From: Dudresnaya verticillata
Lineage: Eukaryota
NCBI GenBank assembly: GCA_977862235.1
Contig: OZ374565.1
Location: 2,418,001-2,482,000 of the forward strand
Direction: 5' to 3'
Length of the DNA stretch: 64,000 nucleotides
The first letter of the stretch is position 1. Every line of letters starts with the position of its first letter. The notes beneath the pieces are model-generated. The model searched no databases, was not told where the DNA came from, and worked only from the letters and a program-made list of their open reading frames with translations. The translations under genes and the position numbers were made by a program. Shown one piece after another: positions 772 through 47,865 of the stretch.

Positions 772-892
772 ACATTCGGCCATACTACGCAGACATGCTC
801 CGTATCCCATCCCGAACTGCGAAGATAAGTCTCGTCAGGCTGGTTTAGTACTGAGGTGAGGGATCACTCTGGAATCGCCAGTGCCGAATGTT
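772..892 (+). rRNA. 5S rRNA gene, intact
   Basis: About 121 nt. 5' ACATTCGGC pairs with 3' GCCGAATGT (helix I). Conserved eukaryotic 5S motifs GGCCATAC, ATCCCATCCCGAACT, GAAG-TAAG, TTAGTACT and GTGA-GGGA-TCAC (GNRA loop D). Followed by a T-run. Confidence 0.96.
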
Positions 893-903
893 TTTATTTT
901 TTT
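891..903 (+). terminator. Pol III terminator (present after every 5S 3' end)
   Basis: TTTTTATTTTTTT at the 5S 3' end. Confidence 0.85.
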
Positions 904-1980
904 GCACCTCATTCCTTCCTCCCCGCCGCCCTCTGCGTACATTGCTGCCTTGCATACCTCTCCCACAGAATCCCCGACCCACTGCCTCTGTACAGCGTAT
1001 TCTTTTCACTCGCACTTTTCCCCTTTTCTTGTAAGTGGGAGGGAGTCTGAGAGTGTTTGCAGGTGTCTAGGGGTTGTTTAGGGTTAGGTCTAGGGTTAGT
1101 TTGGTTACTGTGGTACGCGAGGGGCATGATATTGGGAGGGTAAAGGGTCTAGTGTTGGTGCATGGAATGAATCATGGTGGTGGAAGGAATGGATCAGTGT
1201 GGTGGATGAATTGGATTTAGGGACATAGAATTGGATTAGATTTAGTACCCAGAAGATTGGATCAAGGATCACCACAATCGGATCAAGTCTGGTGGCTGGG
1301 GTGAGGGTGGCTTGGACGTTTGTGCTCATAACTTTGGAACGGCTGGGGCTAGGGAGCTGCTCAGTAGCTGAATCGAAGCGTCTCGTTGCTGCGCATTGCG
1401 TAGCGCTCTTACCCTCCTAAATCGACTTTTTGGCGCGTTTCTATGGTGCAAAACGTCCCCACGGGCCGTCGGCAGCTTTTGAGCAGATCAAATAGGGGTT
1501 TGGGGCATGTATGGTTATGGGTGGGTTTAGGGGTGTTAGGGATGTGTCATTTTAACGCGTTTAGGAGTGTAGGGAGTGGGAATGAAAGTAGTAAGGATGA
1601 GGAAATGGAAAGGGAAGGATGAGAAAGTATAGTACAATGCAGTAATACAAATCACGGAATGCATCAGGTTGGGATCCAATAAGGGTGGATGGATTGGATC
1701 AACGGAAGTCAAGGCGTTATAGGATTGGATCTAGGGGCTCTGTAAATTAGATTGGGTGCTGGTTTCATTGAACCAAGGGGTCAGAACGTCCATGAGCTGG
1801 TTGACTGTATTTATATTGAATCCTGCGTTTAGAGTAAATGGTATACGGTTATGGGTCATTACTTTAATGCTCCACGTGTACACTACAGTCGGATGGACAT
1901 TGGACGCAGGAGTCTTTAGTCGATGACGGGGAGTGCAGTTGATGGCGCATTTAAATAGGGGTACGGCGGGAACAGCAAGC

Positions 1981-2101
1981 ACATTCGGCCATACTACGCA
2001 GACATGCTCCGTATCCCATCCCGAACTGCGAAGATAAGTCTCGTCAGGCTGGTTTAGTACTGAGGTGAGGGATCACTCTGGAATCGCCAGTGCCGAATGT
2101 T
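1981..2101 (+). rRNA. 5S rRNA gene, intact
   Basis: Identical to 772-892. Confidence 0.96.
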
Positions 2102-3189
2102 TTTATTTTTTTGCACCTCATTCCTTCCTCCCCGCCGCCCTCTGCGTACATTGCTGCCTTGCATACCTCTCCCACAGAATCCCCGACCCACTGCCTCTGT
2201 ACAGCGTATTCTTTTCACTCGCACTTTTCCCCTTTTCTTGTAAGTGGGAGGGAGTCTGAGAGTGTTTGCAGGTGTCTAGGGGTTGTTTAGGGTTAGGTCT
2301 AGGGTTAGTTTGGTTACTGTGGTACGCGAGGGGCATGATATTGGGAGGGTAAAGGGTCTAGTGTTGGTGCATGGAATGAATCATGGTGGTGGAAGGAATG
2401 GATCAGTGTGGTGGATGAATTGGATTTAGGGACATAGAATTGGATTAGATTTAGTACCCAGAAGATTGGATCAAGGATCACCACAATCGGATCAAGTCTG
2501 GTGGCTGGGGTGAGGGTGGCTTGGACGTTTGTGCTCATAACTTTGGAACGGCTGGGGCTAGGGAGCTGCTCAGTAGCTGAATCGAAGCGTCTCGTTGCTG
2601 CGCATTGCGTAGCGCTCTTACCCTCCTAAATCGACTTTTTGGCGCGTTTCTATGGTGCAAAACGTCCCCACGGGCCGTCGGCAGCTTTTGAGCAGATCAA
2701 ATAGGGGTTTGGGGCATGTATGGTTATGGGTGGGTTTAGGGGTGTTAGGGATGTGTCATTTTAACGCGTTTAGGAGTGTAGGGAGTGGGAATGAAAGTAG
2801 TAAGGATGAGGAAATGGAAAGGGAAGGATGAGAAAGTATAGTACAATGCAGTAATACAAATCACGGAATGCATCAGGTTGGGATCCAATAAGGGTGGATG
2901 GATTGGATCAACGGAAGTCAAGGCGTTATAGGATTGGATCTAGGGGCTCTGTAAATTAGATTGGGTGCTGGTTTCATTGAACCAAGGGGTCAGAACGTCC
3001 ATGAGCTGGTTGACTGTATTTATATTGAATCCTGCGTTTAGAGTAAATGGTATACGGTTATGGGTCATTACTTTAATGCTCCACGTGTACACTACAGTCG
3101 GATGGACATTGGACGCAGGAGTCTTTAGTCGATGACGGGGAGTGCAGTTGATGGCGCATTTAAATAGGGGTACGGCGGGAACAGCAAGC

Positions 3190-3278
3190 ACATTCGGCCA
3201 TACTACGCAGACATGCTCCGTATCCCATCCCGAACTGCGAAGATAAGTCTCGTCAGGCTGGTTTAGTACTGAGGTGAG
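3190..3278 (+). pseudogene. 5S rRNA 5' part (nt 1-89), interrupted by E1+E2
   Basis: 5S sequence stops after TAGTACTGAGGTGAG; element sequence TTCAACTTT follows. Confidence 0.95.
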
Positions 3279-3379
3279 TTCAACTTTATAACAGGTGACC
3301 ATATTCTAATATTTGTCGACGTACAATCTACTGTAGTATCACAACAAAGTTAAACCCCAACTCAAAACAACTTGCACAT

Positions 3380-6300
3380 CTACACCTCCTGTTGGATCCC
3401 TTCCATCAGGCACTTGACGTTGTTCTGCACCAGTCGCGCCGCGTGCCTGTGGAATAGAGCCGCTCGCGAAACACCGCGAGTTACCATGGCCCGAGAAGCC
3501 ACAGTATCCGCCAACTCTTGCATGTACTTGTGCGCCTCCGGGTGCCAGCCACCTAGTGTGGTCATCGGCACCGGCACAAGTCTTGCCCCCGGTCCGGCAG
3601 CCTGGATGAAGCCACGGTAAGTCCGCACCTTGTCAGCGTGGGCGTTCTTCAGCGTCCCTTGCGGGTTTGTTATGCAGCTGAGAATGCGTTGTTCTGACGA
3701 CAGTGGATGACTGATTGTGACGTCCAGGTAGTCCGTTCCTCCTTCTGTTCCAAGCGCCTTGATGTCCGGCCGATCCAGGTGAGCCCCCACAGGGCGGGGC
3801 TCCACAATCGGGGTGCGTGTCGCACGTTTCAGATCCGAAGCCAGCAGACGAACCTGAGAGTCGTGGCGCCACGACCGAGGAGATCCGCTGTTCCGCATGC
3901 CGTTCGGACAAATCAGCAGATGGTCGCCGTGAACATCCATCTTCTTCTTGCACCCGGCCCGAGGACACTCCGTGTCGGGTTCCAGCAGTGGAATCCGACA
4001 GTAGAATCGAAGCCATACGCGGTAGTCCCGATCCGCAATGTACGTCTTCATGCCTGGTGCCGGCTGGCACTTGAGCCAGTCCTTGGCGCCCGGCACGCCA
4101 AGGGAAGCTCGGAAAGCTTGAGTCCGCCTGTCCCCGAGCGGCAGCTCGGCCTGCACCTTCTTCAGTACCAACTGCGTCAAGTCCCGCTGGCGCGGGCACT
4201 CGTCGCTGTCGATCTTCTCCAGGTCCAGGGCATCCTCACTATGGCACTTGGCGCTCCAGTCTTCGTGCGCTTCTACTGCAAAAGGATCGTCAGAAAGAGC
4301 AGTGTTCACAGAAGCGGGTAAGATAGAACGCAGTAAGTTGCGGGTCAGTGAAAGGGACGCCAAAAACGCGCTCGAGTTCATGTCGCCAGCTCCCGAAATA
4401 CCGATTCCGAAGCTGGGCTCTTTCGTGCGCAGGGGAAGCTGAAGTTCGCGGAAGGTGTCCCTCGGTAGGACTCCTCCCACGAGCTTGCGCATGCAAGCCT
4501 CAATCTTCTGGTCGAAGAGCTCGGCGCCCTTCGCCGTGGCGGATGATGGAACTACTCGCAGCAGGTAGTTCAGCCGGCAGACTCCGGCACAGTTGCGGAG
4601 TAGAGTGATGGCCACGTGTAGGTCTTCTAGTCCCGAAATTGCGTCCAGCAGGGGCTGGATGGACTCGACATGGCCATTCACGCTCTCCTCCATGTAGTTC
4701 TGCGTTCCAATCGGAGCCTGAAGTACTGTAGTGCCTTCTCCGTAGCTCTGCCCAAGATCCGACGGGTAGGCAGCGCAGTCTTCTGGGTCGGGTGCAGTAG
4801 GCCACCAAACAGTACACTTGTCCATGCGCAGGTGGAAGCCATAGCCCTTAGCTTCCTCGGAGTCAAAGAAGGACAGAACCTTCCTGAGTACGGCGTGTTT
4901 CGCCACGATGACGCCGTCGTCCAGGTAGAACAGTGACAGCAGCAAGTTGTTCGCCCCCTCCGCTTGCTGATTGCGGCCCGAGCGCCGCAGGTCGGCGGTG
5001 AGTTCCTTCAACTGTTTGATCAGTGCCTGCAGCACCAAAGCAAACAGTAACGGCCCGAGCGGGTCACCTTGCTGTACACCAGTGACACTCCGCAGTAGAG
5101 TGTCACCCATCCACAGGTGCGGGCCCTCAGAGTCATAACAGTATCTGACCCACGGTAGTAGTTCAGGCATATGTCGGCGGACCTCCTTCATGAATGCTTT
5201 GCGGCTGACAAGGTTGAAGGCATTCTTCAAGTCCACTTGTAGCAACCCGTAGGACTTGTCATGGCCGTGAGACTTCTGCAGCTTCCGGACCGCGTGTACA
5301 ATGGCTTCTGTGCCGCCCGAGGTTGCGACCCCGAGCTGAAGCGGTTCGAGGTATGCCTTGGCCTTGGGAGCGACTCTGGTCATGAGCATAGAGCTCACGA
5401 GTCGTCGGATTGTCTCTCCTACAGCAATGGGGCGGACACCGCCGGTGCGCTTCTTCAGAGCCGTGAGAGGAGCGCTGGCAATCCAAGGCGACAGCTCCGC
5501 AGGTCCTGCGCCGCTGGCCAGCACGTTGACCATTTTGGTGAGCCCGCCAAGCAGGCCCGTGTGCTCGTGAGTGGTCGGGACTGAGAGCAGTTCCTGCAGA
5601 TGGGTCGGTGATAGTCCTGTGCCCCCCGAGGCCGAAGCCCGGGGGAACTTGGCAACTGCTTTTCGTACTTCGTCGGCTGTGAAAGGCACGAAGTCAGGGA
5701 TGGTCGGCAGCGGTTCGGACTGGTCAAGCTCGTGGTCCGCGTCGGTTTGCGGTACGGACTGTGGGTGCTTGTCCTTCATGGACTGTATCACAGAGTCTGT
5801 GGCTGGCGCGATTCCATCAGAGTCTAGAGCTGCTGCTGCCTTACTGTAGGCGCCCTCCTTTGCGAGGCGAAGGGCTCGTGAGGCGTTGATACGGCGTTGC
5901 TCTTCTGCGGAAGGCGCAGTCTGCTCACGGAATGTCGAGCCCTTCAAGGCCTCCTGCCATAGGGCGTCGTAATCCTTGAGTCCCCAGCGGCGGATTCGAT
6001 CGCGGAAGGTGCCGATCGAGGACGCAGAGGTTGACGCGCCGGCCCTTGCACTCGCCGCGGGAGGATTGGACAAGACGGCTGCTGGAAAAAGCAGGAATGC
6101 AGTGAGCTCTTTGGTGGCTTCCTGAGAGTTGTTTGCGTTCGTAAAAGCCCATACCGTCTTGGACAGTGCGTCGCGCACCTCTGCGCGGACGCGAGACGGT
6201 ATATGTGTGACCATAGGGATATGCGAGCGACAGATATCTTCGACCGCCGGCAGAAGCTGCCCTCCTGGACCCCGCGCAGCGTGTCGGGTTTGCGCAGTTG

Positions 6301-6868
6301 GTACCACTTGAGTAGCTGGTACCGGTGCAGGAGGCGGCTCCTGGCTGTCCGGGATTCGTCGCGGGGCTGGCAGGATATCGTCCGCCGGCTCGCCGTCCTC
6401 GGGTTGCGTCTCCGTGACCGCGTCCAGAGCAGGAGTCTGTGATGGCGCGGCTACAGTTTCTTCACGGCTCGGTGTCGTCAATTGGTTGGACGGGACGTGG
6501 GAGAACGCCGGAGTGCGAGTGGCGGGACATGCGCTGCAATTCTTGTACCGCATACTGTACATGCCTTCACTGTTCATGCGGGAGCTACAGTGGGTAGGCA
6601 TGTACTTGTTGTGAGTCACACAGTACCATACTCCATAGTCCAGGAGCTGCTGCTTGAGAGGCTCGATGTCGGTCCTCGTCGGTGGTCCTCGCCTGCCAGG
6701 AACATGCATCTTCCGCAGGTGCATGAGTAGCGCTTCTACAGTAGGCAGTGAGGACGACTGGCAGCCCAGAGGACAGCTGGTACTGTTTGTCGGGCGGTGT
6801 TTTGCCGAAGGCATAAAGCATGGAGAGAGCCATACCTTCGGCATGTCGGGGTGCTGCTGACCAATCAT
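3380..6868 (-). CDS. Retrotransposon protein, 1162 aa: C2H2 ZnF, reverse transcriptase, CCHC knuckle, restriction-like endonuclease
   Basis: C-x3-C-x13-H-x4-H at aa 32-55; RT motifs GVRPIAVGETIRRL, QLGV, DLKNAFN, GVQQGDPLGPLLF, YLDD; CPRAGC...HLLIC knuckle; RHD...E...RPDI...YLDVTI endonuclease. Confidence 0.95.
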   Translation of the reverse strand: MIGQQHPDMPKVWLSPCFMPSAKHRPTNSTSCPLGCQSSSLPTVEALLMHLRKMHVPGRRGPPTRTDIEPLKQQLLDYGVWYCVTHNKYMPTHCSSRMNSEGMYSMRYKNCSACPATRTPAFSHVPSNQLTTPSREETVAAPSQTPALDAVTETQPEDGEPADDILPAPRRIPDSQEPPPAPVPATQVVPTAQTRHAARGPGGQLLPAVEDICRSHIPMVTHIPSRVRAEVRDALSKTVWAFTNANNSQEATKELTAFLLFPAAVLSNPPAASARAGASTSASSIGTFRDRIRRWGLKDYDALWQEALKGSTFREQTAPSAEEQRRINASRALRLAKEGAYSKAAAALDSDGIAPATDSVIQSMKDKHPQSVPQTDADHELDQSEPLPTIPDFVPFTADEVRKAVAKFPRASASGGTGLSPTHLQELLSVPTTHEHTGLLGGLTKMVNVLASGAGPAELSPWIASAPLTALKKRTGGVRPIAVGETIRRLVSSMLMTRVAPKAKAYLEPLQLGVATSGGTEAIVHAVRKLQKSHGHDKSYGLLQVDLKNAFNLVSRKAFMKEVRRHMPELLPWVRYCYDSEGPHLWMGDTLLRSVTGVQQGDPLGPLLFALVLQALIKQLKELTADLRRSGRNQQAEGANNLLLSLFYLDDGVIVAKHAVLRKVLSFFDSEEAKGYGFHLRMDKCTVWWPTAPDPEDCAAYPSDLGQSYGEGTTVLQAPIGTQNYMEESVNGHVESIQPLLDAISGLEDLHVAITLLRNCAGVCRLNYLLRVVPSSATAKGAELFDQKIEACMRKLVGGVLPRDTFRELQLPLRTKEPSFGIGISGAGDMNSSAFLASLSLTRNLLRSILPASVNTALSDDPFAVEAHEDWSAKCHSEDALDLEKIDSDECPRQRDLTQLVLKKVQAELPLGDRRTQAFRASLGVPGAKDWLKCQPAPGMKTYIADRDYRVWLRFYCRIPLLEPDTECPRAGCKKKMDVHGDHLLICPNGMRNSGSPRSWRHDSQVRLLASDLKRATRTPIVEPRPVGAHLDRPDIKALGTEGGTDYLDVTISHPLSSEQRILSCITNPQGTLKNAHADKVRTYRGFIQAAGPGARLVPVPMTTLGGWHPEAHKYMQELADTVASRAMVTRGVSRAALFHRHAARLVQNNVKCLMEGIQQEV

Positions 6869-7542
6869 GGTTACAGCGCTGGGTAAGGTACCTGTAAAGG
6901 TCCTCTACAGTAGGTTCCCACGGGGCACAGACCTCCTAACCGGGACGCAAGCCTGTCGTCCGTCGTCAGTCTGTTCGGGACACCTCCAGAGGGTGCTACA
7001 GGTGGCCTTGCTGCGAGATGAAGGCCTCTTCGCAGCGTAGGGCGCGAGATCGCGCAATTTGCGCACGAGCTCGCGCAAAAGGGCGCGCGTGTTAGCGTTC
7101 GTGCGCGTAGACTTATCGGACGTTCCCTTCCCTGCCGCAGCTGAGAAGACTCTCTTCACTGCGGTCCTGTAACGCGCGGTACTTCTCGTTTGCACAAGCT
7201 CTCAATGGGGTCGCAGAACCACCGTTTACCTGTGAGTGCCCACAGGATTTTTGGCCTCCCCCGAAGGTTCGCTGGCAGGACGTTCGCTCGATCTTAGAAG
7301 GGGTGGTTTCAAAACAGGATCCACCAGGCTTAAGCCACGTTACCCCAACTTCGACGTTGCTTGGCACGTTTCTGCGATGAGCTTGTGGGTCACGAGCCGC
7401 CTACCACTCAAGGTCGAGGGTCTTTGGCGATTCCCACACTTGTAGGTCTCTCGGCACTTCCCGAAGGAAGATTTTACAGGACAAGCCTGGCCTTTACCAA
7501 TCTGTCAGTTGAAGGGTGTGAAACCCCTCTGTCGACAGTCCA

Positions 7543-7573
7543 CGGCAGCCTAGACAGAGTCTAGGCTGTGCCG
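7543..7573 (-). other. Strong hairpin in element 5' UTR (all copies retaining the 5' UTR)
   Basis: Perfect 10-bp inverted repeat CAGCCTAGAC-AGA-GTCTAGGCTG, extended by CGG/CCG after a 2-nt bulge. Confidence 0.7.
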
Positions 7574-7608
7574 GGTACAAGCAAAACGCGTACAGGGCCA
7601 GGGAAAGA

Positions 7609-7654
7609 AAGATAAGTCAGTGGGGCCCGGGCAAATTTCAAGGTGAGGGATCAC
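7609..7654 (+). promoter_or_regulatory. 5S internal control region mimic (Box A / IE / Box C) in the element 5' UTR
   Basis: AAGATAAGTC = 5S nt 51-60 and AGGTGAGGGATCAC = 5S nt 83-96, separated by 22 nt in both; GG of 5S nt 71-72 is also retained. Confidence 0.75.
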
Positions 7655-7688
7655 CTTAAAAGTAAGCGCAAAATAGGAAACGCGTGAC

Positions 7689-7740
7689 CGTCGGCGACGA
7701 CGGCGGCGGCGACGGCGGCGACGACGACGGCGTCGCGGCG
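7689..7740. repeat. GC-rich GAC/GGC trinucleotide tract in the element 5' UTR
   Basis: CGTCGGCGACGACGGCGGCGGCGACGGCGGCGACGACGACGGCGTCGCGGCG; present in the nine complete full-length copies (one SNP in E3). Confidence 0.8.
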
Positions 7741-7938
7741 CAGATCGGCGGCGCGGAAAGAGACAAAAGTAGACCGCGCTCGCCCGCCCGCGAAGGTGAA
7801 GGGCTGAAAAACCCCGCACCGACGCGCCGTCGCGCGCTCGAACAGGCGGCACCGCCGCCGAAAAGATCGGTGCAGAGCTTGTTGAGATATCCGCGAAACA
7901 AAAATTTCGGCAGATCGCTGAGGGAGTACTGAGGTGAG

Positions 7939-10900
7939 TTCAACTTTATAACAGGTGACCATATTCTAATATTTGTCGACGTACAATCTACTGTAGTATC
8001 ACAACAAAGTTAAACCCCAACTCAAAACAACCTGCACATCTACACCTCCTGTTGGATCCCTTCCATCAGGCACTTGACGTTGTTCTGCACCAGTCGCGCC
8101 GCGTGCCTGTGGAACAGAGCCGCTCGCGAAACACCGCGAGTTACCATGGCCCGAGAAGCCACGGTATCCGCCAACTCTTGCATATACTTGTGCGCCTCCG
8201 GGTGCCAGCCACCTAGTGTGGTCATCGGCACCGGCACAAGCCTTGCCCCCGGTCCGGCAGCCTGGATGAAGCCACGATAAGTCCGCACCTTGTCAGCGTG
8301 GGCGTTCTTCAGCGTCCCTTGCGGGTTTGTTATGCAGCTGAGAATGCGTTGTTCTGACGACAGTGGATGACTGATTGTGACGTCCAGGTAGTCCGTTCCT
8401 CCTTCTGTTCCAAGCGCCTTGATGTCCGGCCGATCCAAGTGAGCCCCCACAGGGCGGGGCTCCACAATCGGGGTGCGTGTCGCACGTTTCAGATCCGAAG
8501 CCAGCAGACGAACCTGAGAGTCGTGGCGCCACGACCGAGGAGATCCGCTGTTCCGCATGCCGTTCGGACAAATCAGCAGATGGTCGCCGTGAACATCCAT
8601 CATCTTCTTGCACCCGGCCCGAGGACACTCCGTGTCGGGTTCCAGCAGTGGAATCCGACAGTAGAATCGAAGCCATACGCGGTAGTCCCGATCCGCAATG
8701 TACGTCTTCATGCCTGGTGCCGGCTGGCACTTGAGCCAGTCCTTGGCGCCCGGCACGCCAAGGGAAGCTCGGAAAGCTTGCGTCCGCCTGTCCCCGAGCG
8801 GCAGCTCGGCTTGCACTTTCTTCAGAACCAACCGCGTCAAGTCCCGCTGGCGCGGGCACTCGTCGCTGTCGATCTTCTCCAGGTCCAGGGCATCCTCACT
8901 ATGGCACTTGGCGCTCCAGTCTTCGTGCGCTTCTACTGCAAAAGGATCGTCAGAAAGAGCAGTGTTCACAGAAGCGGGTAAGATAGAACGCAGTAAGTTG
9001 CGGGTCAGTGAAAGGGACGCCAAAAACGCGCTCGAGTTCATGTCGCCAGCTCCCGAAATACCGATTCCGAAGCTGGGCTCTTTCGTGCGCAGGGGAAGCT
9101 GAAGTTCGCGGAAGGTGTCCCTCGGTAGGACTCCTCCCACGAGCTTGCGCATGCAAGCCTCAATCTTCTGGTCGAAGAGCTCGGCGCCCTTTGCCGTGGC
9201 GGATGATGGAACTACTCGCAGCAGGTAGTTCAGCCGGCAGACTCCGGCACAGTTGCGGAGTAGAGTGATGGCCACGTGTAGGTCTTCTAGTCCCGAAATT
9301 GCGTCCAGCAGGGGCTGGATGGACTCGACATGGCCATTCACGCTCTCCTCCATGTAGTTCTGCGTTCCAATCGGAGCCTGAAGTACTGTAGTGCCTTCTC
9401 CGTAGCTCTGCCCAAGATCCGACGGGTAGGCAGCGCAGTCTTCTGGGTCGGGTGCAGTAGGCCACCAAACAGTACACTTGTCCATGCGCAGGTGGAAGCC
9501 ATAGCCCTTAGCTTCCTCGGAGTCAAAGAAGGACAGAACCTTCCTGAGTACGGCGTGTTTCGCCACGATGACGCCGTCGTCCAGGTAGAACAGTGACAGC
9601 AGCAAGTTGTTCGCCCCCTCCGCTTGCTGATTGCGGCCCGAGCGCCGCAGGTCGGCGGTGAGTTCCTTCAACTGTTTGATCAGTGCCTGCAGCACCAAAG
9701 CAAACAGTAACGGCCCGAGCGGGTCACCTTGCTGTACACCAGTGACACTCCGCAGTAGAGTGTCACCCATCCACAGGTGCGGGCCCTCAGAGTCATAACA
9801 GTATCTGACCCACGGTAGTAGTTCAGGCATATGTCGGCGGACCTCCTTCATGAATGCTTTGCGGCTGACAAGGTTGAAGGCATTCTTCAAGTCCACTTGT
9901 AGCAACCCGTAGGACTTGTCATGGCCGTGAGACTTCTGCAGCTTCCGGACCGCGTGTACAATGGCTTCTGTGCCGCCCGAGGTTGCGACCCCGAGCTGAA
10001 GCGGTTCGAGGTATGCCTTGGCCTTGGGAGCGACTCTGGTCATGAGCATAGAGCTCACGAGTCGTCGGATTGTCTCTCCTACAGCAATGGGGCGGACACC
10101 GCCGGTGCGCTTCTTCAGAGCCGTGAGAGGAGCGCTGGCAATCCAAGGCGACAGCTCCGCAGGTCCTGCGCCGCTGGCCAGCACGTTGACCATTTTGGTG
10201 AGCCCGCCAAGCAGGCCCGTGTGCTCGTGAGTGGTCGGGACTGAGAGCAGTTCCTGCAGATGGGTCGGTGATAGTCCTGTTCCCCCCGAGGCCGAAGCCC
10301 GGGGGAACTTGGCCACTGCTTTTCGTACTTCGTCGGCTGTGAAAGGCACGAAGTCAGGCATGGTCGGCAGCGGTTCGGACTGGTCAAGCTCGTGGTCCGC
10401 GTCGGTTTGCGGTACGGACTGCGGGTGCTTGTCCTTCATGGACTGTATCACAGAGTCTGTGGCTGGGGCGATTCCATCAGAGTCTAGAGCTGCTGCTGCC
10501 TTACTGTAGGCGCCCTCCTTTGCGAGGCGAAGGGCTCGTGAGGCATTGATACGGCGTTGCTCTTCTGCGGAAGGCGCAGTCTGCTCACGGAATGTCGAGC
10601 CCTTCAAGGCCTCCTGCCATAGGGCGTCGTAATCCTTGAGTCCCCAGCGTCGGATTCGATCGCGGAAGGTGCCGATCGAGGACGCAGAGGTTGACGCGCT
10701 GGCCCTTGCACTCGCCGCGGGAGGATTGGACAAGACGGCTGCTGGAAAAAGCAGGAATGCAGTGAGCTCTTTGGTGGCTTCCTGAGAGTTGGTTGCGTTC
10801 GTAAAAGCCCATACCGTCTTGGACAGTGCGTCGCGCACCTCGGCGCGGACGCGAGACGGTATATGTGTGACCATAGGGATATGCGAGCGACAGATGTCTT

Positions 10901-12590
10901 CGACCGCCGGCAGAAGCTGCCCTCCTGGACCCCGCGCAACGGGTGGGGTTTGCGCAGTTGGTACCTCTCGAGTAGCAGGTACCGGTGCAGGAGGCGGCTC
11001 CTGGCTGTCCGGGATTCGTCGCGGGGCTGGCAGGATATCGTCCGCTGGCTCGCCGTCCTCGGGTTGCGTCTCCGTGACCGCGTCCAGAGCAGGAGACTGT
11101 GATGGCGCGGCTACAGTTTCTTCACGGCTCGGTGTCGTCAATTGGTTGGACGGGACGTGGGAGAACGCCGGAGTGCGAGTAGCGGGACATGCGCTGCAAT
11201 TCTTGTACCGCATACTGTACATGCCTTCACTGTTCATGCGGGAGCTACAGTGGGTGGGCATGTACTTGTTGTGAGTCACACAGTACCATACTCCATAGTC
11301 CAGGAGCTGCTGCTTGAGAGGCTCGATGTCGGTCCTCGTCGGTGGTCCTCGCCTGCCAGGAACATGCATCTTCCGCAGGTGCATGAGTAGCGCTTCTACA
11401 GTAGGCAGTGAGGACGACTGGCAGCCCAGAGGACAGCTGGTACTGTTTGTCGGGCGGTGTTTTGCCGAAGGCATAAAGCATGGAGAGAGCCATACCTTCG
11501 GCATGTCGGGGTGCTGCTGACCAATCATGGTTACAGCGCTGGGTAAGGTACCTGTAAAGGTCCTCTACAGTAGGTTCCCACGGGGCACAGACCTCCTAAC
11601 CGGGACGCAAGCCTGTCGTCCGTCGTCAGTCTGTTCGGGACACCTCCAGAGGGTGCTACAGGTGGCCTTGCTGCGAGATGAGGGCCTCTTCGCAGCGTAG
11701 GGCGCGAGATCGCGCACTTTGCGCACGAGCTCGCGCAAAAGGGCGCGCGTGTTAGCGTTCGTGCGCGCAGAGTTATCGGACGTTCCCTTCCCTGCCGCAG
11801 CTGAGAAGACTCTCTTCACTGCGGTCCTGTAACGCGCGGTACTTCTCGTTTGCACAAGCTCTCAATGGGGTCGCAGAACCACCGTTTACCTGTGAGTGCC
11901 CACAGGATTTTTGGCCTCCCCCGAAGGTTCGCTGGCAGGACGTTCGCTCGATCTTAGAAGGGGTGGTTTCAAAACAGGATCCACCAGGCTTAAGCCACGT
12001 TACCCCAACTTCGACGTTGCTTGGCACGTTTCTGCGATGAGCTTGTGGGTCACGAGCCGCCTACCACTCAAGGTCGAGGGTCTTTGGCGATTCCCACACT
12101 TGTAGGTCTCTCGGCACTTCCCGAAGGAAGATTTTACAGGACAAGCCTGGCCTTTGCCAATCTGTCAGTTGAAGGGTGTGAAACCCCTCTGTCGACAGTC
12201 CACGGCAGCCTAGACAGAGTCTAGGCTGTGCCGGGTACAAGCAAAACGCGTACAGGGCCAGGGAAAGAAAGATAAGTCAGTGGGGCCCGGGCAAATTTCA
12301 AGGTGAGGGATCACCTTAAAAGTAAGCGCAAAATAGGAAACGCGTGACCGTCGGCGACGACGGCGGCGGCGACGGCGGCGACGACGACGGCGTCGCGGCG
12401 CAGATCGGCGGCGCGGAAAGAGACAAAAGTAGACCGCGCTCGCCCGCCCGCGAAGGTGAAGGGCTGAAAAACCCCGCACCGACGCGCCGTCGCGCGCTCG
12501 AACAGGCGGCACCGCCGCCGAAAAGATCGGTGCAGAACTTGCTGAGAAATCTCCGAAACAAAAAATTCGGCAGATCGCGAGGGGTCCTCC
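7939..12590 (-). mobile_element. E2: full-length copy, head-to-tail with E1
   Basis: Same 3' end after AGTACTGAGGTGAG; type-B 5' end ending in GAGGGGTCCTCC. Confidence 0.93.
8040..11528 (-). CDS. RT-RLE retrotransposon protein, 1162 aa (E2)
   Basis: Intact ORF with the same motifs as E1. Confidence 0.95.
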   Translation of the reverse strand: MIGQQHPDMPKVWLSPCFMPSAKHRPTNSTSCPLGCQSSSLPTVEALLMHLRKMHVPGRRGPPTRTDIEPLKQQLLDYGVWYCVTHNKYMPTHCSSRMNSEGMYSMRYKNCSACPATRTPAFSHVPSNQLTTPSREETVAAPSQSPALDAVTETQPEDGEPADDILPAPRRIPDSQEPPPAPVPATREVPTAQTPPVARGPGGQLLPAVEDICRSHIPMVTHIPSRVRAEVRDALSKTVWAFTNATNSQEATKELTAFLLFPAAVLSNPPAASARASASTSASSIGTFRDRIRRWGLKDYDALWQEALKGSTFREQTAPSAEEQRRINASRALRLAKEGAYSKAAAALDSDGIAPATDSVIQSMKDKHPQSVPQTDADHELDQSEPLPTMPDFVPFTADEVRKAVAKFPRASASGGTGLSPTHLQELLSVPTTHEHTGLLGGLTKMVNVLASGAGPAELSPWIASAPLTALKKRTGGVRPIAVGETIRRLVSSMLMTRVAPKAKAYLEPLQLGVATSGGTEAIVHAVRKLQKSHGHDKSYGLLQVDLKNAFNLVSRKAFMKEVRRHMPELLPWVRYCYDSEGPHLWMGDTLLRSVTGVQQGDPLGPLLFALVLQALIKQLKELTADLRRSGRNQQAEGANNLLLSLFYLDDGVIVAKHAVLRKVLSFFDSEEAKGYGFHLRMDKCTVWWPTAPDPEDCAAYPSDLGQSYGEGTTVLQAPIGTQNYMEESVNGHVESIQPLLDAISGLEDLHVAITLLRNCAGVCRLNYLLRVVPSSATAKGAELFDQKIEACMRKLVGGVLPRDTFRELQLPLRTKEPSFGIGISGAGDMNSSAFLASLSLTRNLLRSILPASVNTALSDDPFAVEAHEDWSAKCHSEDALDLEKIDSDECPRQRDLTRLVLKKVQAELPLGDRRTQAFRASLGVPGAKDWLKCQPAPGMKTYIADRDYRVWLRFYCRIPLLEPDTECPRAGCKKMMDVHGDHLLICPNGMRNSGSPRSWRHDSQVRLLASDLKRATRTPIVEPRPVGAHLDRPDIKALGTEGGTDYLDVTISHPLSSEQRILSCITNPQGTLKNAHADKVRTYRGFIQAAGPGARLVPVPMTTLGGWHPEAHKYMQELADTVASRAMVTRGVSRAALFHRHAARLVQNNVKCLMEGIQQEV

Positions 12591-12621
12591 AGTACTATAG
12601 TACTGAGGTGAGGGATCACTC

Positions 12622-12667
12622 AGTACTGAGGTGAGGGATCACTCTGGAATCGCCAGTGCCGAATGTT
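12622..12667 (+). pseudogene. 5S rRNA 3' part after E1+E2 (includes duplicated target)
   Basis: AGTACTGAGGTGAGGGATCACTCTGG...GCCGAATGT followed by the T-run. Confidence 0.93.
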
Positions 12668-13755: not shown

Positions 13756-13876
13756 ACATTCGGCCATACTACGCAGACATGCTCCGTATCCCATCCCGAA
13801 CTGCGAAGATAAGTCTCGTCAGGCTGGTTTAGTACTGAGGTGAGGGATCACTCTGGAATCGCCAGTGCCGAATGTT
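13756..13876 (+). rRNA. 5S rRNA gene, intact
   Basis: Identical to 772-892. Confidence 0.96.
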
Positions 13877-14964
13877 TTTATTTTTTTGCACCTCATTCCT
13901 TCCTCCCCGCCGCCCTCTGCGTACATTGCTGCCTTGCATACCTCTCCCACAGAATCCCCGACCCACTGCCTCTGTACAGCGTATTCTTTTCACTCGCACT
14001 TTTCCCCTTTTCTTGTAAGTGGGAGGGAGTCTGAGAGTGTTTGCAGGTGTCTAGGGGTTGTTTAGGGTTAGGTCTAGGGTTAGTTTGGTTACTGTGGTAC
14101 GCGAGGGGCATGATATTGGGAGGGTAAAGGGTCTAGTGTTGGTGCATGGAATGAATCATGGTGGTGGAAGGAATGGATCAGTGTGGTGGATGAATTGGAT
14201 TTAGGGACATAGAATTGGATTAGATTTAGTACCCAGAAGATTGGATCAAGGATCACCACAATCGGATCAAGTCTGGTGGCTGGGGTGAGGGTGGCTTGGA
14301 CGTTTGTGCTCATAACTTTGGAACGGCTGGGGCTAGGGAGCTGCTCAGTAGCTGAATCGAAGCGTCTCGTTGCTGCGCATTGCGTAGCGCTCTTACCCTC
14401 CTAAATCGACTTTTTGGCGCGTTTCTATGGTGCAAAACGTCCCCACGGGCCGTCGGCAGCTTTTGAGCAGATCAAATAGGGGTTTGGGGCATGTATGGTT
14501 ATGGGTGGGTTTAGGGGTGTTAGGGATGTGTCATTTTAACGCGTTTAGGAGTGTAGGGAGTGGGAATGAAAGTAGTAAGGATGAGGAAATGGAAAGGGAA
14601 GGATGAGAAAGTATAGTACAATGCAGTAATACAAATCACGGAATGCATCAGGTTGGGATCCAATAAGGGTGGATGGATTGGATCAACGGAAGTCAAGGCG
14701 TTATAGGATTGGATCTAGGGGCTCTGTAAATTAGATTGGGTGCTGGTTTCATTGAACCAAGGGGTCAGAACGTCCATGAGCTGGTTGACTGTATTTATAT
14801 TGAATCCTGCGTTTAGAGTAAATGGTATACGGTTATGGGTCATTACTTTAATGCTCCACGTGTACACTACAGTCGGATGGACATTGGACGCAGGAGTCTT
14901 TAGTCGATGACGGGGAGTGCAGTTGATGGCGCATTTAAATAGGGGTACGGCGGGAACAGCAAGC

Positions 14965-15085
14965 ACATTCGGCCATACTACGCAGACATGCTCCGTATCC
15001 CATCCCGAACTGCGAAGATAAGTCTCGTCAGGCTGGTTTAGTACTGAGGTGAGGGATCACTCTGGAATCGCCAGTGCCGAATGTT
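14965..15085 (+). rRNA. 5S rRNA gene, intact
   Basis: Identical to 772-892. Confidence 0.96.
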
Positions 15086-16173
15086 TTTATTTTTTTGCAC
15101 CTCATTCCTTCCTCCCCGCCGCCCTCTGCGTACATTGCTGCCTTGCATACCTCTCCCACAGAATCCCCGACCCACTGCCTCTGTACAGCGTATTCTTTTC
15201 ACTCGCACTTTTCCCCTTTTCTTGTAAGTGGGAGGGAGTCTGAGAGTGTTTGCAGGTGTCTAGGGGTTGTTTAGGGTTAGGTCTAGGGTTAGTTTGGTTA
15301 CTGTGGTACGCGAGGGGCATGATATTGGGAGGGTAAAGGGTCTAGTGTTGGTGCATGGAATGAATCATGGTGGTGGAAGGAATGGATCAGTGTGGTGGAT
15401 GAATTGGATTTAGGGACATAGAATTGGATTAGATTTAGTACCCAGAAGATTGGATCAAGGATCACCACAATCGGATCAAGTCTGGTGGCTGGGGTGAGGG
15501 TGGCTTGGACGTTTGTGCTCATAACTTTGGAACGGCTGGGGCTAGGGAGCTGCTCAGTAGCTGAATCGAAGCGTCTCGTTGCTGCGCATTGCGTAGCGCT
15601 CTTACCCTCCTAAATCGACTTTTTGGCGCGTTTCTATGGTGCAAAACGTCCCCACGGGCCGTCGGCAGCTTTTGAGCAGATCAAATAGGGGTTTGGGGCA
15701 TGTATGGTTATGGGTGGGTTTAGGGGTGTTAGGGATGTGTCATTTTAACGCGTTTAGGAGTGTAGGGAGTGGGAATGAAAGTAGTAAGGATGAGGAAATG
15801 GAAAGGGAAGGATGAGAAAGTATAGTACAATGCAGTAATACAAATCACGGAATGCATCAGGTTGGGATCCAATAAGGGTGGATGGATTGGATCAACGGAA
15901 GTCAAGGCGTTATAGGATTGGATCTAGGGGCTCTGTAAATTAGATTGGGTGCTGGTTTCATTGAACCAAGGGGTCAGAACGTCCATGAGCTGGTTGACTG
16001 TATTTATATTGAATCCTGCGTTTAGAGTAAATGGTATACGGTTATGGGTCATTACTTTAATGCTCCACGTGTACACTACAGTCGGATGGACATTGGACGC
16101 AGGAGTCTTTAGTCGATGACGGGGAGTGCAGTTGATGGCGCATTTAAATAGGGGTACGGCGGGAACAGCAAGC

Positions 16174-16294
16174 ACATTCGGCCATACTACGCAGACATGC
16201 TCCGTATCCCATCCCGAACTGCGAAGATAAGTCTCGTCAGGCTGGTTTAGTACTGAGGTGAGGGATCACTCTGGAATCGCCAGTGCCGAATGTT
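16174..16294 (+). rRNA. 5S rRNA gene, intact
   Basis: Identical to 772-892. Confidence 0.96.
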
Positions 16295-17382
16295 TTTATT
16301 TTTTTGCACCTCATTCCTTCCTCCCCGCCGCCCTCTGCGTACATTGCTGCCTTGCATACCTCTCCCACAGAATCCCCGACCCACTGCCTCTGTACAGCGT
16401 ATTCTTTTCACTCGCACTTTTCCCCTTTTCTTGTAAGTGGGAGGGAGTCTGAGAGTGTTTGCAGGTGTCTAGGGGTTGTTTAGGGTTAGGTCTAGGGTTA
16501 GTTTGGTTACTGTGGTACGCGAGGGGCATGATATTGGGAGGGTAAAGGGTCTAGTGTTGGTGCATGGAATGAATCATGGTGGTGGAAGGAATGGATCAGT
16601 GTGGTGGATGAATTGGATTTAGGGACATAGAATTGGATTAGATTTAGTACCCAGAAGATTGGATCAAGGATCACCACAATCGGATCAAGTCTGGTGGCTG
16701 GGGTGAGGGTGGCTTGGACGTTTGTGCTCATAACTTTGGAACGGCTGGGGCTAGGGAGCTGCTCAGTAGCTGAATCGAAGCGTCTCGTTGCTGCGCATTG
16801 CGTAGCGCTCTTACCCTCCTAAATCGACTTTTTGGCGCGTTTCTATGGTGCAAAACGTCCCCACGGGCCGTCGGCAGCTTTTGAGCAGATCAAATAGGGG
16901 TTTGGGGCATGTATGGTTATGGGTGGGTTTAGGGGTGTTAGGGATGTGTCATTTTAACGCGTTTAGGAGTGTAGGGAGTGGGAATGAAAGTAGTAAGGAT
17001 GAGGAAATGGAAAGGGAAGGATGAGAAAGTATAGTACAATGCAGTAATACAAATCACGGAATGCATCAGGTTGGGATCCAATAAGGGTGGATGGATTGGA
17101 TCAACGGAAGTCAAGGCGTTATAGGATTGGATCTAGGGGCTCTGTAAATTAGATTGGGTGCTGGTTTCATTGAACCAAGGGGTCAGAACGTCCATGAGCT
17201 GGTTGACTGTATTTATATTGAATCCTGCGTTTAGAGTAAATGGTATACGGTTATGGGTCATTACTTTAATGCTCCACGTGTACACTACAGTCGGATGGAC
17301 ATTGGACGCAGGAGTCTTTAGTCGATGACGGGGAGTGCAGTTGATGGCGCATTTAAATAGGGGTACGGCGGGAACAGCAAGC

Positions 17383-17503
17383 ACATTCGGCCATACTACG
17401 CAGACATGCTCCGTATCCCATCCCGAACTGCGAAGATAAGTCTCGTCAGGCTGGTTTAGTACTGAGGTGAGGGATCACTCTGGAATCGCCAGTGCCGAAT
17501 GTT
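17383..17503 (+). rRNA. 5S rRNA gene, intact
   Basis: Identical to 772-892. Confidence 0.96.
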
Positions 17504-18591
17504 TTTATTTTTTTGCACCTCATTCCTTCCTCCCCGCCGCCCTCTGCGTACATTGCTGCCTTGCATACCTCTCCCACAGAATCCCCGACCCACTGCCTCT
17601 GTACAGCGTATTCTTTTCACTCGCACTTTTCCCCTTTTCTTGTAAGTGGGAGGGAGTCTGAGAGTGTTTGCAGGTGTCTAGGGGTTGTTTAGGGTTAGGT
17701 CTAGGGTTAGTTTGGTTACTGTGGTACGCGAGGGGCATGATATTGGGAGGGTAAAGGGTCTAGTGTTGGTGCATGGAATGAATCATGGTGGTGGAAGGAA
17801 TGGATCAGTGTGGTGGATGAATTGGATTTAGGGACATAGAATTGGATTAGATTTAGTACCCAGAAGATTGGATCAAGGATCACCACAATCGGATCAAGTC
17901 TGGTGGCTGGGGTGAGGGTGGCTTGGACGTTTGTGCTCATAACTTTGGAACGGCTGGGGCTAGGGAGCTGCTCAGTAGCTGAATCGAAGCGTCTCGTTGC
18001 TGCGCATTGCGTAGCGCTCTTACCCTCCTAAATCGACTTTTTGGCGCGTTTCTATGGTGCAAAACGTCCCCACGGGCCGTCGGCAGCTTTTGAGCAGATC
18101 AAATAGGGGTTTGGGGCATGTATGGTTATGGGTGGGTTTAGGGGTGTTAGGGATGTGTCATTTTAACGCGTTTAGGAGTGTAGGGAGTGGGAATGAAAGT
18201 AGTAAGGATGAGGAAATGGAAAGGGAAGGATGAGAAAGTATAGTACAATGCAGTAATACAAATCACGGAATGCATCAGGTTGGGATCCAATAAGGGTGGA
18301 TGGATTGGATCAACGGAAGTCAAGGCGTTATAGGATTGGATCTAGGGGCTCTGTAAATTAGATTGGGTGCTGGTTTCATTGAACCAAGGGGTCAGAACGT
18401 CCATGAGCTGGTTGACTGTATTTATATTGAATCCTGCGTTTAGAGTAAATGGTATACGGTTATGGGTCATTACTTTAATGCTCCACGTGTACACTACAGT
18501 CGGATGGACATTGGACGCAGGAGTCTTTAGTCGATGACGGGGAGTGCAGTTGATGGCGCATTTAAATAGGGGTACGGCGGGAACAGCAAGC

Positions 18592-18712
18592 ACATTCGGC
18601 CATACTACGCAGACATGCTCCGTATCCCATCCCGAACTGCGAAGATAAGTCTCGTCAGGCTGGTTTAGTACTGAGGTGAGGGATCACTCTGGAATCGCCA
18701 GTGCCGAATGTT
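18592..18712 (+). rRNA. 5S rRNA gene, intact
   Basis: Identical to 772-892. Confidence 0.96.
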
Positions 18713-19800
18713 TTTATTTTTTTGCACCTCATTCCTTCCTCCCCGCCGCCCTCTGCGTACATTGCTGCCTTGCATACCTCTCCCACAGAATCCCCGACCC
18801 ACTGCCTCTGTACAGCGTATTCTTTTCACTCGCACTTTTCCCCTTTTCTTGTAAGTGGGAGGGAGTCTGAGAGTGTTTGCAGGTGTCTAGGGGTTGTTTA
18901 GGGTTAGGTCTAGGGTTAGTTTGGTTACTGTGGTACGCGAGGGGCATGATATTGGGAGGGTAAAGGGTCTAGTGTTGGTGCATGGAATGAATCATGGTGG
19001 TGGAAGGAATGGATCAGTGTGGTGGATGAATTGGATTTAGGGACATAGAATTGGATTAGATTTAGTACCCAGAAGATTGGATCAAGGATCACCACAATCG
19101 GATCAAGTCTGGTGGCTGGGGTGAGGGTGGCTTGGACGTTTGTGCTCATAACTTTGGAACGGCTGGGGCTAGGGAGCTGCTCAGTAGCTGAATCGAAGCG
19201 TCTCGTTGCTGCGCATTGCGTAGCGCTCTTACCCTCCTAAATCGACTTTTTGGCGCGTTTCTATGGTGCAAAACGTCCCCACGGGCCGTCGGCAGCTTTT
19301 GAGCAGATCAAATAGGGGTTTGGGGCATGTATGGTTATGGGTGGGTTTAGGGGTGTTAGGGATGTGTCATTTTAACGCGTTTAGGAGTGTAGGGAGTGGG
19401 AATGAAAGTAGTAAGGATGAGGAAATGGAAAGGGAAGGATGAGAAAGTATAGTACAATGCAGTAATACAAATCACGGAATGCATCAGGTTGGGATCCAAT
19501 AAGGGTGGATGGATTGGATCAACGGAAGTCAAGGCGTTATAGGATTGGATCTAGGGGCTCTGTAAATTAGATTGGGTGCTGGTTTCATTGAACCAAGGGG
19601 TCAGAACGTCCATGAGCTGGTTGACTGTATTTATATTGAATCCTGCGTTTAGAGTAAATGGTATACGGTTATGGGTCATTACTTTAATGCTCCACGTGTA
19701 CACTACAGTCGGATGGACATTGGACGCAGGAGTCTTTAGTCGATGACGGGGAGTGCAGTTGATGGCGCATTTAAATAGGGGTACGGCGGGAACAGCAAGC

Positions 19801-19921
19801 ACATTCGGCCATACTACGCAGACATGCTCCGTATCCCATCCCGAACTGCGAAGATAAGTCTCGTCAGGCTGGTTTAGTACTGAGGTGAGGGATCACTCTG
19901 GAATCGCCAGTGCCGAATGTT
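19801..19921 (+). rRNA. 5S rRNA gene, intact
   Basis: Identical to 772-892. Confidence 0.96.
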
Positions 19922-21009
19922 TTTATTTTTTTGCACCTCATTCCTTCCTCCCCGCCGCCCTCTGCGTACATTGCTGCCTTGCATACCTCTCCCACAGAAT
20001 CCCCGACCCACTGCCTCTGTACAGCGTATTCTTTTCACTCGCACTTTTCCCCTTTTCTTGTAAGTGGGAGGGAGTCTGAGAGTGTTTGCAGGTGTCTAGG
20101 GGTTGTTTAGGGTTAGGTCTAGGGTTAGTTTGGTTACTGTGGTACGCGAGGGGCATGATATTGGGAGGGTAAAGGGTCTAGTGTTGGTGCATGGAATGAA
20201 TCATGGTGGTGGAAGGAATGGATCAGTGTGGTGGATGAATTGGATTTAGGGACATAGAATTGGATTAGATTTAGTACCCAGAAGATTGGATCAAGGATCA
20301 CCACAATCGGATCAAGTCTGGTGGCTGGGGTGAGGGTGGCTTGGACGTTTGTGCTCATAACTTTGGAACGGCTGGGGCTAGGGAGCTGCTCAGTAGCTGA
20401 ATCGAAGCGTCTCGTTGCTGCGCATTGCGTAGCGCTCTTACCCTCCTAAATCGACTTTTTGGCGCGTTTCTATGGTGCAAAACGTCCCCACGGGCCGTCG
20501 GCAGCTTTTGAGCAGATCAAATAGGGGTTTGGGGCATGTATGGTTATGGGTGGGTTTAGGGGTGTTAGGGATGTGTCATTTTAACGCGTTTAGGAGTGTA
20601 GGGAGTGGGAATGAAAGTAGTAAGGATGAGGAAATGGAAAGGGAAGGATGAGAAAGTATAGTACAATGCAGTAATACAAATCACGGAATGCATCAGGTTG
20701 GGATCCAATAAGGGTGGATGGATTGGATCAACGGAAGTCAAGGCGTTATAGGATTGGATCTAGGGGCTCTGTAAATTAGATTGGGTGCTGGTTTCATTGA
20801 ACCAAGGGGTCAGAACGTCCATGAGCTGGTTGACTGTATTTATATTGAATCCTGCGTTTAGAGTAAATGGTATACGGTTATGGGTCATTACTTTAATGCT
20901 CCACGTGTACACTACAGTCGGATGGACATTGGACGCAGGAGTCTTTAGTCGATGACGGGGAGTGCAGTTGATGGCGCATTTAAATAGGGGTACGGCGGGA
21001 ACAGCAAGC

Positions 21010-21098
21010 ACATTCGGCCATACTACGCAGACATGCTCCGTATCCCATCCCGAACTGCGAAGATAAGTCTCGTCAGGCTGGTTTAGTACTGAGGTGAG
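21010..21098 (+). pseudogene. 5S rRNA 5' part (nt 1-89), interrupted by E3-E9
   Basis: Stops at GAGGTGAG, followed by element TTCAAC. Confidence 0.95.
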
Positions 21099-25750: not shown

Positions 25751-25782
25751 GGGTACTGAGGTGAGGACTGAGGTCAGGTGAG

Positions 25783-30434: not shown

Positions 30435-30469
30435 AGTCTCAGTCTGAGGTGAGGGAGTACTCAGGTGAG

Positions 30470-35108: not shown

Positions 35109-35123
35109 TCAGTCTGAGGTGAG

Positions 35124-39775: not shown

Positions 39776-39807
39776 GGGTACTGAGGTGAGGACTGAGGTC
39801 AGGTGAG

Positions 39808-44447: not shown

Positions 44448-44463
44448 TGAGTACTGAGGTGAG

Positions 44464-45479
44464 TTCAACTTTATAACAGGTGACCATATTCTAATATTTG
44501 TCGACGTACAATCTACTGTAGTATCACAACAAAGTTAAACCCCAACTCAAAACAACCTGCACATCTACACCTCCTGTTGGATCCCTTCCATCAGGCACTT
44601 GACGTTGTTCTGCACCAGTCGCGCCGCGTGCCTGTGGAACAGAGCCGCTCGCGAAACACCGCGAGTTACCATGGCCCGAGAAGCCACGGTATCCGCCAAC
44701 TCTTGCATATACTTGTGCGCCTCCGGGTGCCAGCCACCTAGTGTGGTCATCGGCACCGGCACAAGCCTTGCCCCCGGTCCGGCAGCCTGGATGAAGCCAC
44801 GGTAAGTCCGCACCTTGTCAGCGTGGGCGTTCTTCAGCGTCCCTTGCGGGTTTGTTATGCAGCTGAGAATGCGTTGTTCTGACGACAGTGGATGACTGAT
44901 TGTGACGTCCAGGTAGTCCGTTCCTCCTTCTGTTCCAAGCGCCTTGATGTCCGGCCGATCCAAGTGAGCCCCCACCGGGCGGGGCTCCACAATCGGGGTG
45001 CGTGTCGCACGTTTCAGATCCGAAGCCAGCAGACGAACCTGAGAGTCGTGGCGCCACGACCGAGGAGATCCGCTGTTCCGCATGCCGTTCGGACAAATCA
45101 GCAGATGGTCGCCGTGAACATCCATCATCTTCTTGCACCCGGCCCGAGGACACTCCGTGTCGGGTTCCAGCAGTGGAATCCGACAGTAGAATCGAAGCCA
45201 TACGCGGTAGTCCCGATCCGCAATGTACGTCTTCATGCCTGGTGCCGGCTGGCACTTGAGCCAGTCCTTGGCGCCCGGCACGCCAAGGGAAGCTCGGAAA
45301 GCTTGCGTCCGCCTGTCCCCGAGCGGCAGCTCGGCTTGCACTTTCTTCAGAACCAACCGCGTCAAGTCCCGCTGGCGCGGGCACTCGTCGCTGTCGATCT
45401 TCTCCAGGTCCAGGGCATCCTCACTATGGCACTTGGCGCTCCAGTCTTCGTGCGCTTCTACTGCAAAAGGATCGTCAGA
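44464..45479 (-). mobile_element. E8: 5'-truncated copy (~1.0 kb)
   Basis: Intact 3' end; homology stops at AAAGGATCGTCAGA, then TCGTC and the target repeat. Confidence 0.92.
44565..45479 (-). pseudogene. C-terminal fragment of the retrotransposon ORF (CCHC + RLE only)
   Basis: Matches the C-terminal part of the 1162-aa protein; RT absent. Confidence 0.88.
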
Positions 45480-45498
45480 TCGTCAGTACTGAGGTGAG

Positions 45499-47821: not shown

Positions 47822-47823
47822 CG

Positions 47824-47865
47824 CTGAGGTGAGGGATCACTCTGGAATCGCCAGTGCCGAATGTT
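47824..47865 (+). pseudogene. 5S rRNA 3' part after the E3-E9 stack
   Basis: CTGAGGTGAGGGATCACTCTGG...GAATGT; 10-bp target duplication. Confidence 0.93.

Follow-up and report, generated by a model that had tools for sequence, protein, structure and literature searches.

Retrotransposons with a restriction-like endonuclease (RLE) form the oldest group of LINEs and are the basis of R2-type gene-writing tools. R2 targets the 28S rRNA gene, in the sense orientation and co-transcribed with it; CRE1, SLACS and CZAR target spliced-leader genes, SLACS and CZAR carrying a poly(A) tail, and MoTeR targets telomeric repeats. Mutsu, found in 5S rRNA genes, uses an APE endonuclease and belongs to the Tx1 clade. 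A study of the CRE clade, in the excerpt used here, names spliced-leader exons and telomeric repeats as targets, and describes target duplications for all known CRE elements and target deletions for NeSL (PMC3636483). The Utopia elements, an RLE clade, are reported in the cited passage to target U2 snRNA genes, to occur sometimes in tandem stacks, and in some members to encode an Ulp1 protease (PMC4640811). For 5S genes, the parts of the sources cited describe the zebrafish element Mutsu as having two ORFs in about 5.5 kb and inserting about 20 nt from the 5S 5' end (PMC5340908), list Mutsu as a LINE inserted into 5S in a 2024 review of elements in rDNA (PMC10946416), and state that Dada-5S, a fish DNA transposon, targets 5S rRNA genes (PMC8869645).

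The present analysis concerns one window of 64 kb from the genome of Dudresnaya verticillata (GCA_977862235.1, contig OZ374565.1, 2,418,001-2,482,000, forward strand), and all coordinates below count from its first nucleotide. The window contains 5S rDNA in tandem with a unit of 1,209 bp, and Rfam recognised eight complete 5S genes and four cut ones, beginning at 3190, 21010, 48954 and 54810. Judging by the 5S sequence, the host is probably a red alga. BLAST tiling showed that one such unit and one element account for the entire window. The element, of about 4.64 kb and without LTRs, is present in 12 copies, all on the minus strand and antisense to 5S, in clusters of 2, 7, 1 and at least 2 copies (the last cluster runs off the window). 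Together they cover about 49.5 of the 64 kb, so that an RLE element occupies about 77% of this stretch of the 5S array. The layout is as follows.

772..3189, plus strand: two intact 1,209-bp 5S units, the uninserted target (Rfam, BLAST tiling)
3190..3278, plus strand: first interrupted 5S gene, 5' part (nt 1-89)
3279..7917, minus strand: full-length copy 1 of 4,639 nt, with a type-A 5' end
7918..7938, plus strand: linker between copies 1 and 2, with 7 extra nt and a 14-nt duplicate of 5S nt 76-89
7939..12577, minus strand: full-length copy 2, with an intact ORF and a type-B 5' end
12578..12667, plus strand: complex 5' junction, with extra 5S nt 75-98 and then nt 76-121 (14-nt duplication plus the 3' part of the gene)
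13756..21009, plus strand: six further 5S units of 1,209 bp, intact and with the same sequence as the first
21010..47865: second interrupted 5S gene with seven stacked copies (3-9, minus strand)
Second cluster, minus strand: copies 3-7, full length, starting at 21099, 25783, 30470, 35124 and 39808
44464-45482 and 45499-47823, minus strand: copies 8 and 9 of the second cluster, 5'-truncated
48954..53721: third interrupted 5S gene, holding a single full copy (copy 10, 49043-53680)
54810..64000: fourth interrupted 5S gene, holding copy 11 at 54899-59537 and copy 12 from 59586 to the window end

The insertions share one position. An earlier note on this DNA, whose coordinates span the first of the four clusters, had placed the cut in the four interrupted 5S genes between nt 89 and 90, and in all four of them 5S nt 1-89 indeed passes straight into the element; antisense insertion at a single 5S base, also claimed there, applies to every one of the 12 copies, which lie at nt 89 on the minus strand. 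The first 19 nt of the element 3' end are common to all 12 copies and each time directly follow AGGTGAG. The copies differ further in, and the earlier description of twelve identical 3' ends abutting AGGTGAG therefore holds for the junction only. This 3' end is preceded by intact 5S nt 1-89 in four of the copies, and by the linker of a neighbouring copy in the remaining eight. The junction is sharp: the element carries no poly(A), and its end is not homologous to 5S from nt 90 onward. The Rfam alignment puts the site directly behind the G that opens the GNRA loop G89-A92 in loop D, a position which we take to lie in Box C of the internal promoter (Xenopus numbering, nt 80-97). The far side of the cut is visible in three of the four genes, where 5S is taken up again at nt 76, at nt 80 and at about nt 93-94. 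Around the insertion site 17 of 21 nt agree with the Rfam 5S consensus; use of the element as a site-specific insertion tool, based on this conserved target, is speculative.

BLAST tiling of the whole window left no insertion in the spacer, in keeping with what had been noted before. The odds of hitting the same base and strand by chance, calculated by simple arithmetic for three independent hits in a 1,209-bp unit, are below 1e-6. A family that merely prefers a short motif near the 5S site, with many copies elsewhere in the genome and the array as its 5S subset, is an unlikely explanation. It is accommodated by the scope of the survey (one 64-kb window of the genome), by the non-5S flanks of two relatives from the same clade (L002 and L059), and by four stacked copies that keep only 7 nt of 5S at their 3' side. 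However, the 7-nt motif of the junction is found at two places within each element, once inside a 14-nt match that spans the cut, and these sites are unused in all copies, implying that recognition needs more context; moreover, some 14 kb of unit DNA contain no insertion at any position other than nt 89. Insertion directed to 5S nt 89 itself is the reading followed below.

In contrast to the fixed 3' end, the 5' ends are variable or truncated. Eleven 5' junctions are visible, nine of which are distinct, and ten carry a target duplication of 7-14 nt ending at nt 89. This duplication comprises 14 nt in copies 1, 2, 7 and 8, 10 nt in copies 5 and 9, and 7 nt in copies 3, 4, 6 and 11, while copy 10 has no duplication and has lost 5S nt 90-92/93. 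The stagger of 14 nt predicted earlier is thus recovered in 4 of 11 junctions (10 nt in two, 7 nt in four and none in one). Fragments of 5S nt 75-102, in direct or inverted orientation, are found in the linkers as well. Truncation has left 1.0 kb of copy 8 and 2.3 kb of copy 9, both of which retain exactly the 3' end of the other copies. The 5' end of copy 9 (47816-47833) shares its last 14 nt with a full-length type-A junction, and the join runs through a 6-nt microhomology that is present four times in the element; this suggests a template jump, or a deletion, to the 5' tip of the element. Retention of the 5' tip by copy 8 was also considered and dropped, as a local slippage repeat of 8 nt accounts for its junction. 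Two types of 5' end can be distinguished, one in copies 1, 5, 7 and 10 and the other in copies 2, 3, 4, 6 and 11, which differ at several positions in the first hairpin (7860-7917 and equivalents).

We propose that these insertions arose, with high probability, by repeated target-primed reverse transcription directed to 5S nt 89, and were reshuffled later by recombination. The steps of nicking, priming and joining are inferred from the junctions and from R2/CRE biochemistry. The element protein would bind 5S DNA and make a first nick in the 5S sense strand after G89, the 3'-OH of which would prime reverse transcription of the element RNA. A second nick in the other strand would be made about 14 nt towards the 5S 5' end, or sometimes 10 or 7 nt; at 14 nt it would fall between nt 75 and 76, at an AGTACT palindrome, and would yield the duplicate. 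Imprecise 5' joining may then insert the short direct and inverted target scraps. Later copies would stack head to tail on the target remnant, because such a remnant survives each insertion, and unequal crossing-over would then multiply and shuffle the stacked copies. By splitting Box C, each insertion would disable the 5S gene that receives it. In copies 5 and 7 the duplicate holds more 5S than their present 3' flank, which favours insertion of new copies beside intact 5S 1-89, although recombination yields the same pattern. The linkers at 25738-25782, 30422-30469, 35108-35123, 39763-39807 and 59538-59585 have modules in common, and the linker of copy 5 is contained within that of copy 4, as if earlier junctions had been carried in RNA and re-copied.

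Comparison of the copies over 4,400 columns identifies three sublineages, separated by 37-52 differences and with 0-8 differences within each. Among the ten ORFs, 35 changes are synonymous (874 sites) and 24 are replacements (2,612 sites), which gives a pN/pS of 0.23 (binomial p 2.6e-8), and the ORF is under purifying selection. The elements have diverged while all eight full 5S units remain without any difference among them, and are therefore not mere passengers of array homogenisation; selection on the ORF together with divergence inside a homogenised array indicates propagation by retrotransposition. Recent activity, as asserted in the earlier note, is borne out. These results confirm a real, young, site-directed RLE retrotransposon in the 5S array.

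It is evident that recombination has copied and mixed insertions. The linkers of copies 3 and 6 are identical, as are those of copies 4 and 11, copies 4-5 and 11-12 form near-identical pairs, and copy 7 combines the body of copy 6 with the other 5' end type. The identical linkers and the recombinant copy 7 imply fewer than 12 insertion events. The same observations would also fit one or two chance 5S insertions that were multiplied by unequal crossing-over and gene conversion without any targeting. This is very improbable, however, as nine different 5' junctions, two truncations and spacer-free head-to-tail stacks are unlike the products of unit-wise crossing-over, the ORFs are under selection, and three sublineages with 1% divergence lie among spacers with zero differences. 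Even less probable is an artefact in which a repeat collapsed during assembly and gave rise to the tandem stacks. The 5S units are 100% identical, and one sequencing run (0.06 share) gave short low-depth pieces, with junctions lacking coverage, both of which would suit an artefact, but the copies differ in codon-biased sets of SNPs and in their junctions, which mis-assembly does not create, and the single 5S/element junction stands even if stack lengths are wrong. Repeated site-directed retrotransposition followed by recombination thus remains our preferred explanation.

The anatomy of the element is best described for copy 1.

3279..3379, minus strand: 3' UTR of 101 nt, lacking a poly(A) tail and with an unremarkable fold (z 0.33)
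3380..6868, minus strand: single ORF, 1,162 aa
6527..6775, minus strand: N-terminal zinc module, C2H2 (aa 32-55) and C-x2-H...C-x2-C (aa 83-114)
4769..5419, minus strand: reverse transcriptase (RT) domain, Pfam RVT_1, aa 484-700, YLDD
3908..3967, minus strand: CCHC zinc knuckle, aa 968-987
3539..3868, minus strand: restriction-like endonuclease (RHD, PD-x12-D, K...Y, GGW), aa 1001-1110
6869..7917, minus strand: 5' region, 1,049 nt, no ATG; likely internal promoter and 5' UTR
7636..7661, strand not given: 11-bp hairpin holding an exact 14-nt match to 5S nt 83-96

The 3' UTR has a 1-nt deletion in copies 5, 10 and 12. The 5' region is free of ATG in all nine complete copies; for copy 1, only 3 of 5,000 shuffles were ATG-free, with a shuffle mean of 5.8 ATG. 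The opposite strand is also ATG-poor (3 vs a mean of 5.8), which softens the argument from the absence of AUG. The first 280 nt are CpG-rich, and folding over the first 425 nt is much stronger than in shuffled sequences (z -6.7). As the element is antisense to the Pol III-transcribed 5S gene, it cannot ride on the 5S transcript, and a promoter of its own is likely; this promoter probably lies in the CpG-rich 5' end, with translation by scanning from the first AUG. A search for ribozymes gave no Rfam match up to E 10 in 6800-8100; divergent ribozymes can escape such a search. The hairpin at 7636-7661 has an equivalent in nine other copies and replicates helix IV/loop D of 5S, where the cut site lies; by comparison with its exact match, any 5S 14-mer was present in 5 of 2,000 shuffles. 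This 5S-like match is never used as a target in the window, and the hairpin may be a fossil junction or a mimic of the target. A 98-codon in-frame stretch upstream of the ORF was rejected as a gene, since it has no ATG and no match among 377 proteins.

The ORF of 1,162 aa is open from the same ATG in all ten untruncated copies. It contains all the RT motifs, the CCHC motif and the PD-D endonuclease that had been named before, with RPIAVGE at aa 479, QQGDPLGP at aa 599, YLDD at aa 648, CCHC at aa 968-987, and the endonuclease motifs RHD at aa 1001, PD-x12-D at aa 1034-1049, K...Y at aa 1080 and GGW at aa 1106. The RT domain matches Pfam RVT_1 (E 1e-16), while Pfam recognised no named domain in the N-terminal 125 aa or in the RLE region. 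After the RT, CCHC and RLE follow in this order, with invariant C, H, C, H and D columns in an alignment of 80 sequences. The RLE motifs match the RH, PD-D, K..KY and RG.W motifs of R2Bm, which, according to the cited part of a study of that protein, were mutated there (PMC4838377). The earlier reading of a single ORF with RT and a C-terminal CCHC/RLE region is thereby upheld by Pfam, motifs and predicted fold.

An AlphaFold model of aa 323-1162 was obtained with high scores (pLDDT 95, pTM 0.93), and its seven best Foldseek matches are all R2 structures (E 1.6e-22, TM 0.63). Structural alignment with R2 runs over model residues 1-839 (Z 23-26, 705-742 residues, rmsd 4.2-6.4); LINE-1 ORF2p is level with R2 by Z-score, but with fewer residues aligned. 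The predicted fold thus tracks R2 from end to end. A search of the Atlas returned unnamed RT clusters only. The zinc module is predicted to be folded (pLDDT about 80 in the full-length model), followed by a disordered linker (aa 124-202), and is likely to bind DNA. At E under 1e-4 it recurs in 8 of 377 proteins, each of them a close relative.

The element shares with R2 (and R8 and R9) the domain order, the predicted fold over RT, linker and RLE, site specificity for an rRNA array, and 5' truncations. Unlike R2, to which it is 16-17% identical, it targets the Pol III-transcribed 5S gene rather than 28S or 18S, is antisense and hence without co-transcription with its target, and has no ribozyme recognised by Rfam and no recognised Myb domain in its protein. 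With the CRE clade it has in common a single protein with N-terminal zinc finger, RT, CCHC and RLE, as well as target duplications and insertion into a multicopy small-RNA gene array. It differs from CRE1, SLACS, CZAR and MoTeR in its target (5S nt 89/90); it lacks a poly(A) tail, and its protein belongs to a separate clade of unnamed proteins. As in Utopia and NeSL, which are sometimes stacked in tandem, an RLE element resides in a small-RNA gene and forms tandem stacks; however, those target U2 snRNA and SL1, and NeSL is associated with deletions instead of duplications. Mutsu is likewise a 5S-specific non-LTR element, in contrast to which the present one has one ORF, an RLE, a length of 4.64 kb and the site at nt 89/90. 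Dada-5S shares the 5S target, but is a DDE transposon without reverse transcriptase.

The nearest proteins, P0133 (73% identity over part of the protein), P0001 (57%) and P0002 (52%), are unnamed. A SLACS-named protein of Diplonema shows 27% identity over 862 columns (243 bits), covering the whole RT-RLE region, whereas the family profile matches R2 in the RT core only (76 bits). The term CRE-like, used in the earlier note, therefore stands as a statement of resemblance: at the sequence level the element protein appears much closer to SLACS-named (CRE-like) proteins than to R2, and as a resemblance this is well supported. An RT tree of 55 rows was constructed (16 closest, 18 further unnamed, 5 other and 15 named proteins, without outgroup). 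It places the element protein in a clade of 22 rows without a named member (SH-aLRT 100), among rows that include no curated CRE, R4, NeSL or HERO; proteins of Diplonema, sponge, tardigrade, moth, plant and fungal origin that were automatically named after SLACS fall outside this clade. A search with the SLACS-named protein P0072 returned four proteins, none of them curated, and cluster look-ups gave no names for 20 close relatives.

The loci of relatives comprise at least 80 from metagenomes, 48 from prokaryote bins and one viral locus; P0133, P0001 and P0002 are not among them. Because none of the 129 loci listed matched the 5S sequence of the window, and none of the 53 scanned with Rfam had any match at gathering score, 5S targeting is not extended to the wider clade. 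L002 and L059, the only two of five close-clade loci with a 3' flank, contained no 5S in it even at E 5. Three close relatives (P0005, P0125 and P0128) have an Ulp1-family protease upstream of the RT according to Pfam, and an Ulp1-like protease was judged by eye at L002:4100-4800; this domain, known from NeSL/Utopia elements, is absent from the element in the window. The 48 loci encoding relatives in prokaryote genome bins (L081-L128) are most likely eukaryotic contigs contaminating these bins.

Fell and colleagues reportedly mined CRE elements from assemblies. No RLE or CRE element inserted into 5S turned up in the literature searched, which covers neither Repbase nor Fell et al. 2025. The targets of RLE elements named there are 28S, 18S, spliced leader, U2, telomeres and microsatellites, with 5S absent, and the term 5S rDNA does not occur in two reviews from 2026 (PMC13580325 and PMC13708176). 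The earlier suggestion that the family may be undescribed agrees with this literature; Repbase, according to the cited part of a 2015 account, held 1,181 families from the red alga Chondrus crispus (PMC4455052). A 5S target for a Chlamydomonas Dualen element was also considered, but literature naming both terms gave no support.

The machinery is of a known kind and the target apparently new, and we regard it as probable that 5S is a new target for RLE elements. A fuller reading is put forward tentatively, with confidence just short of even. The element would be the first strictly 5S-specific RLE retrotransposon, and would represent a lineage of the CRE group that is active, uncatalogued and equipped with a zinc module of its own, and that inserts antisense in loop D/Box C. 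It would have its own promoter without a ribozyme, would read mainly the 5' half of 5S, hence its self-stacking, and would carry in its 5' UTR a hairpin that mimics the target. If uncatalogued, it would be the first RLE-type element known to aim at 5S. Besides Mutsu and Dada-5S, it provides a third, independent way of living in 5S arrays. As a young family with ten intact ORFs, an exactly known cut site, a short 3' UTR and a protein of 1,162 aa, it makes retargeting in the CRE group, which has been little studied, directly testable.

Some features of the 5S units themselves were also observed. A TATA-like AT-rich box is present about 30 nt upstream of every 5S gene (738-746), the terminator is a split T-run (889-902), and the spacer has a strong skew of G over C.
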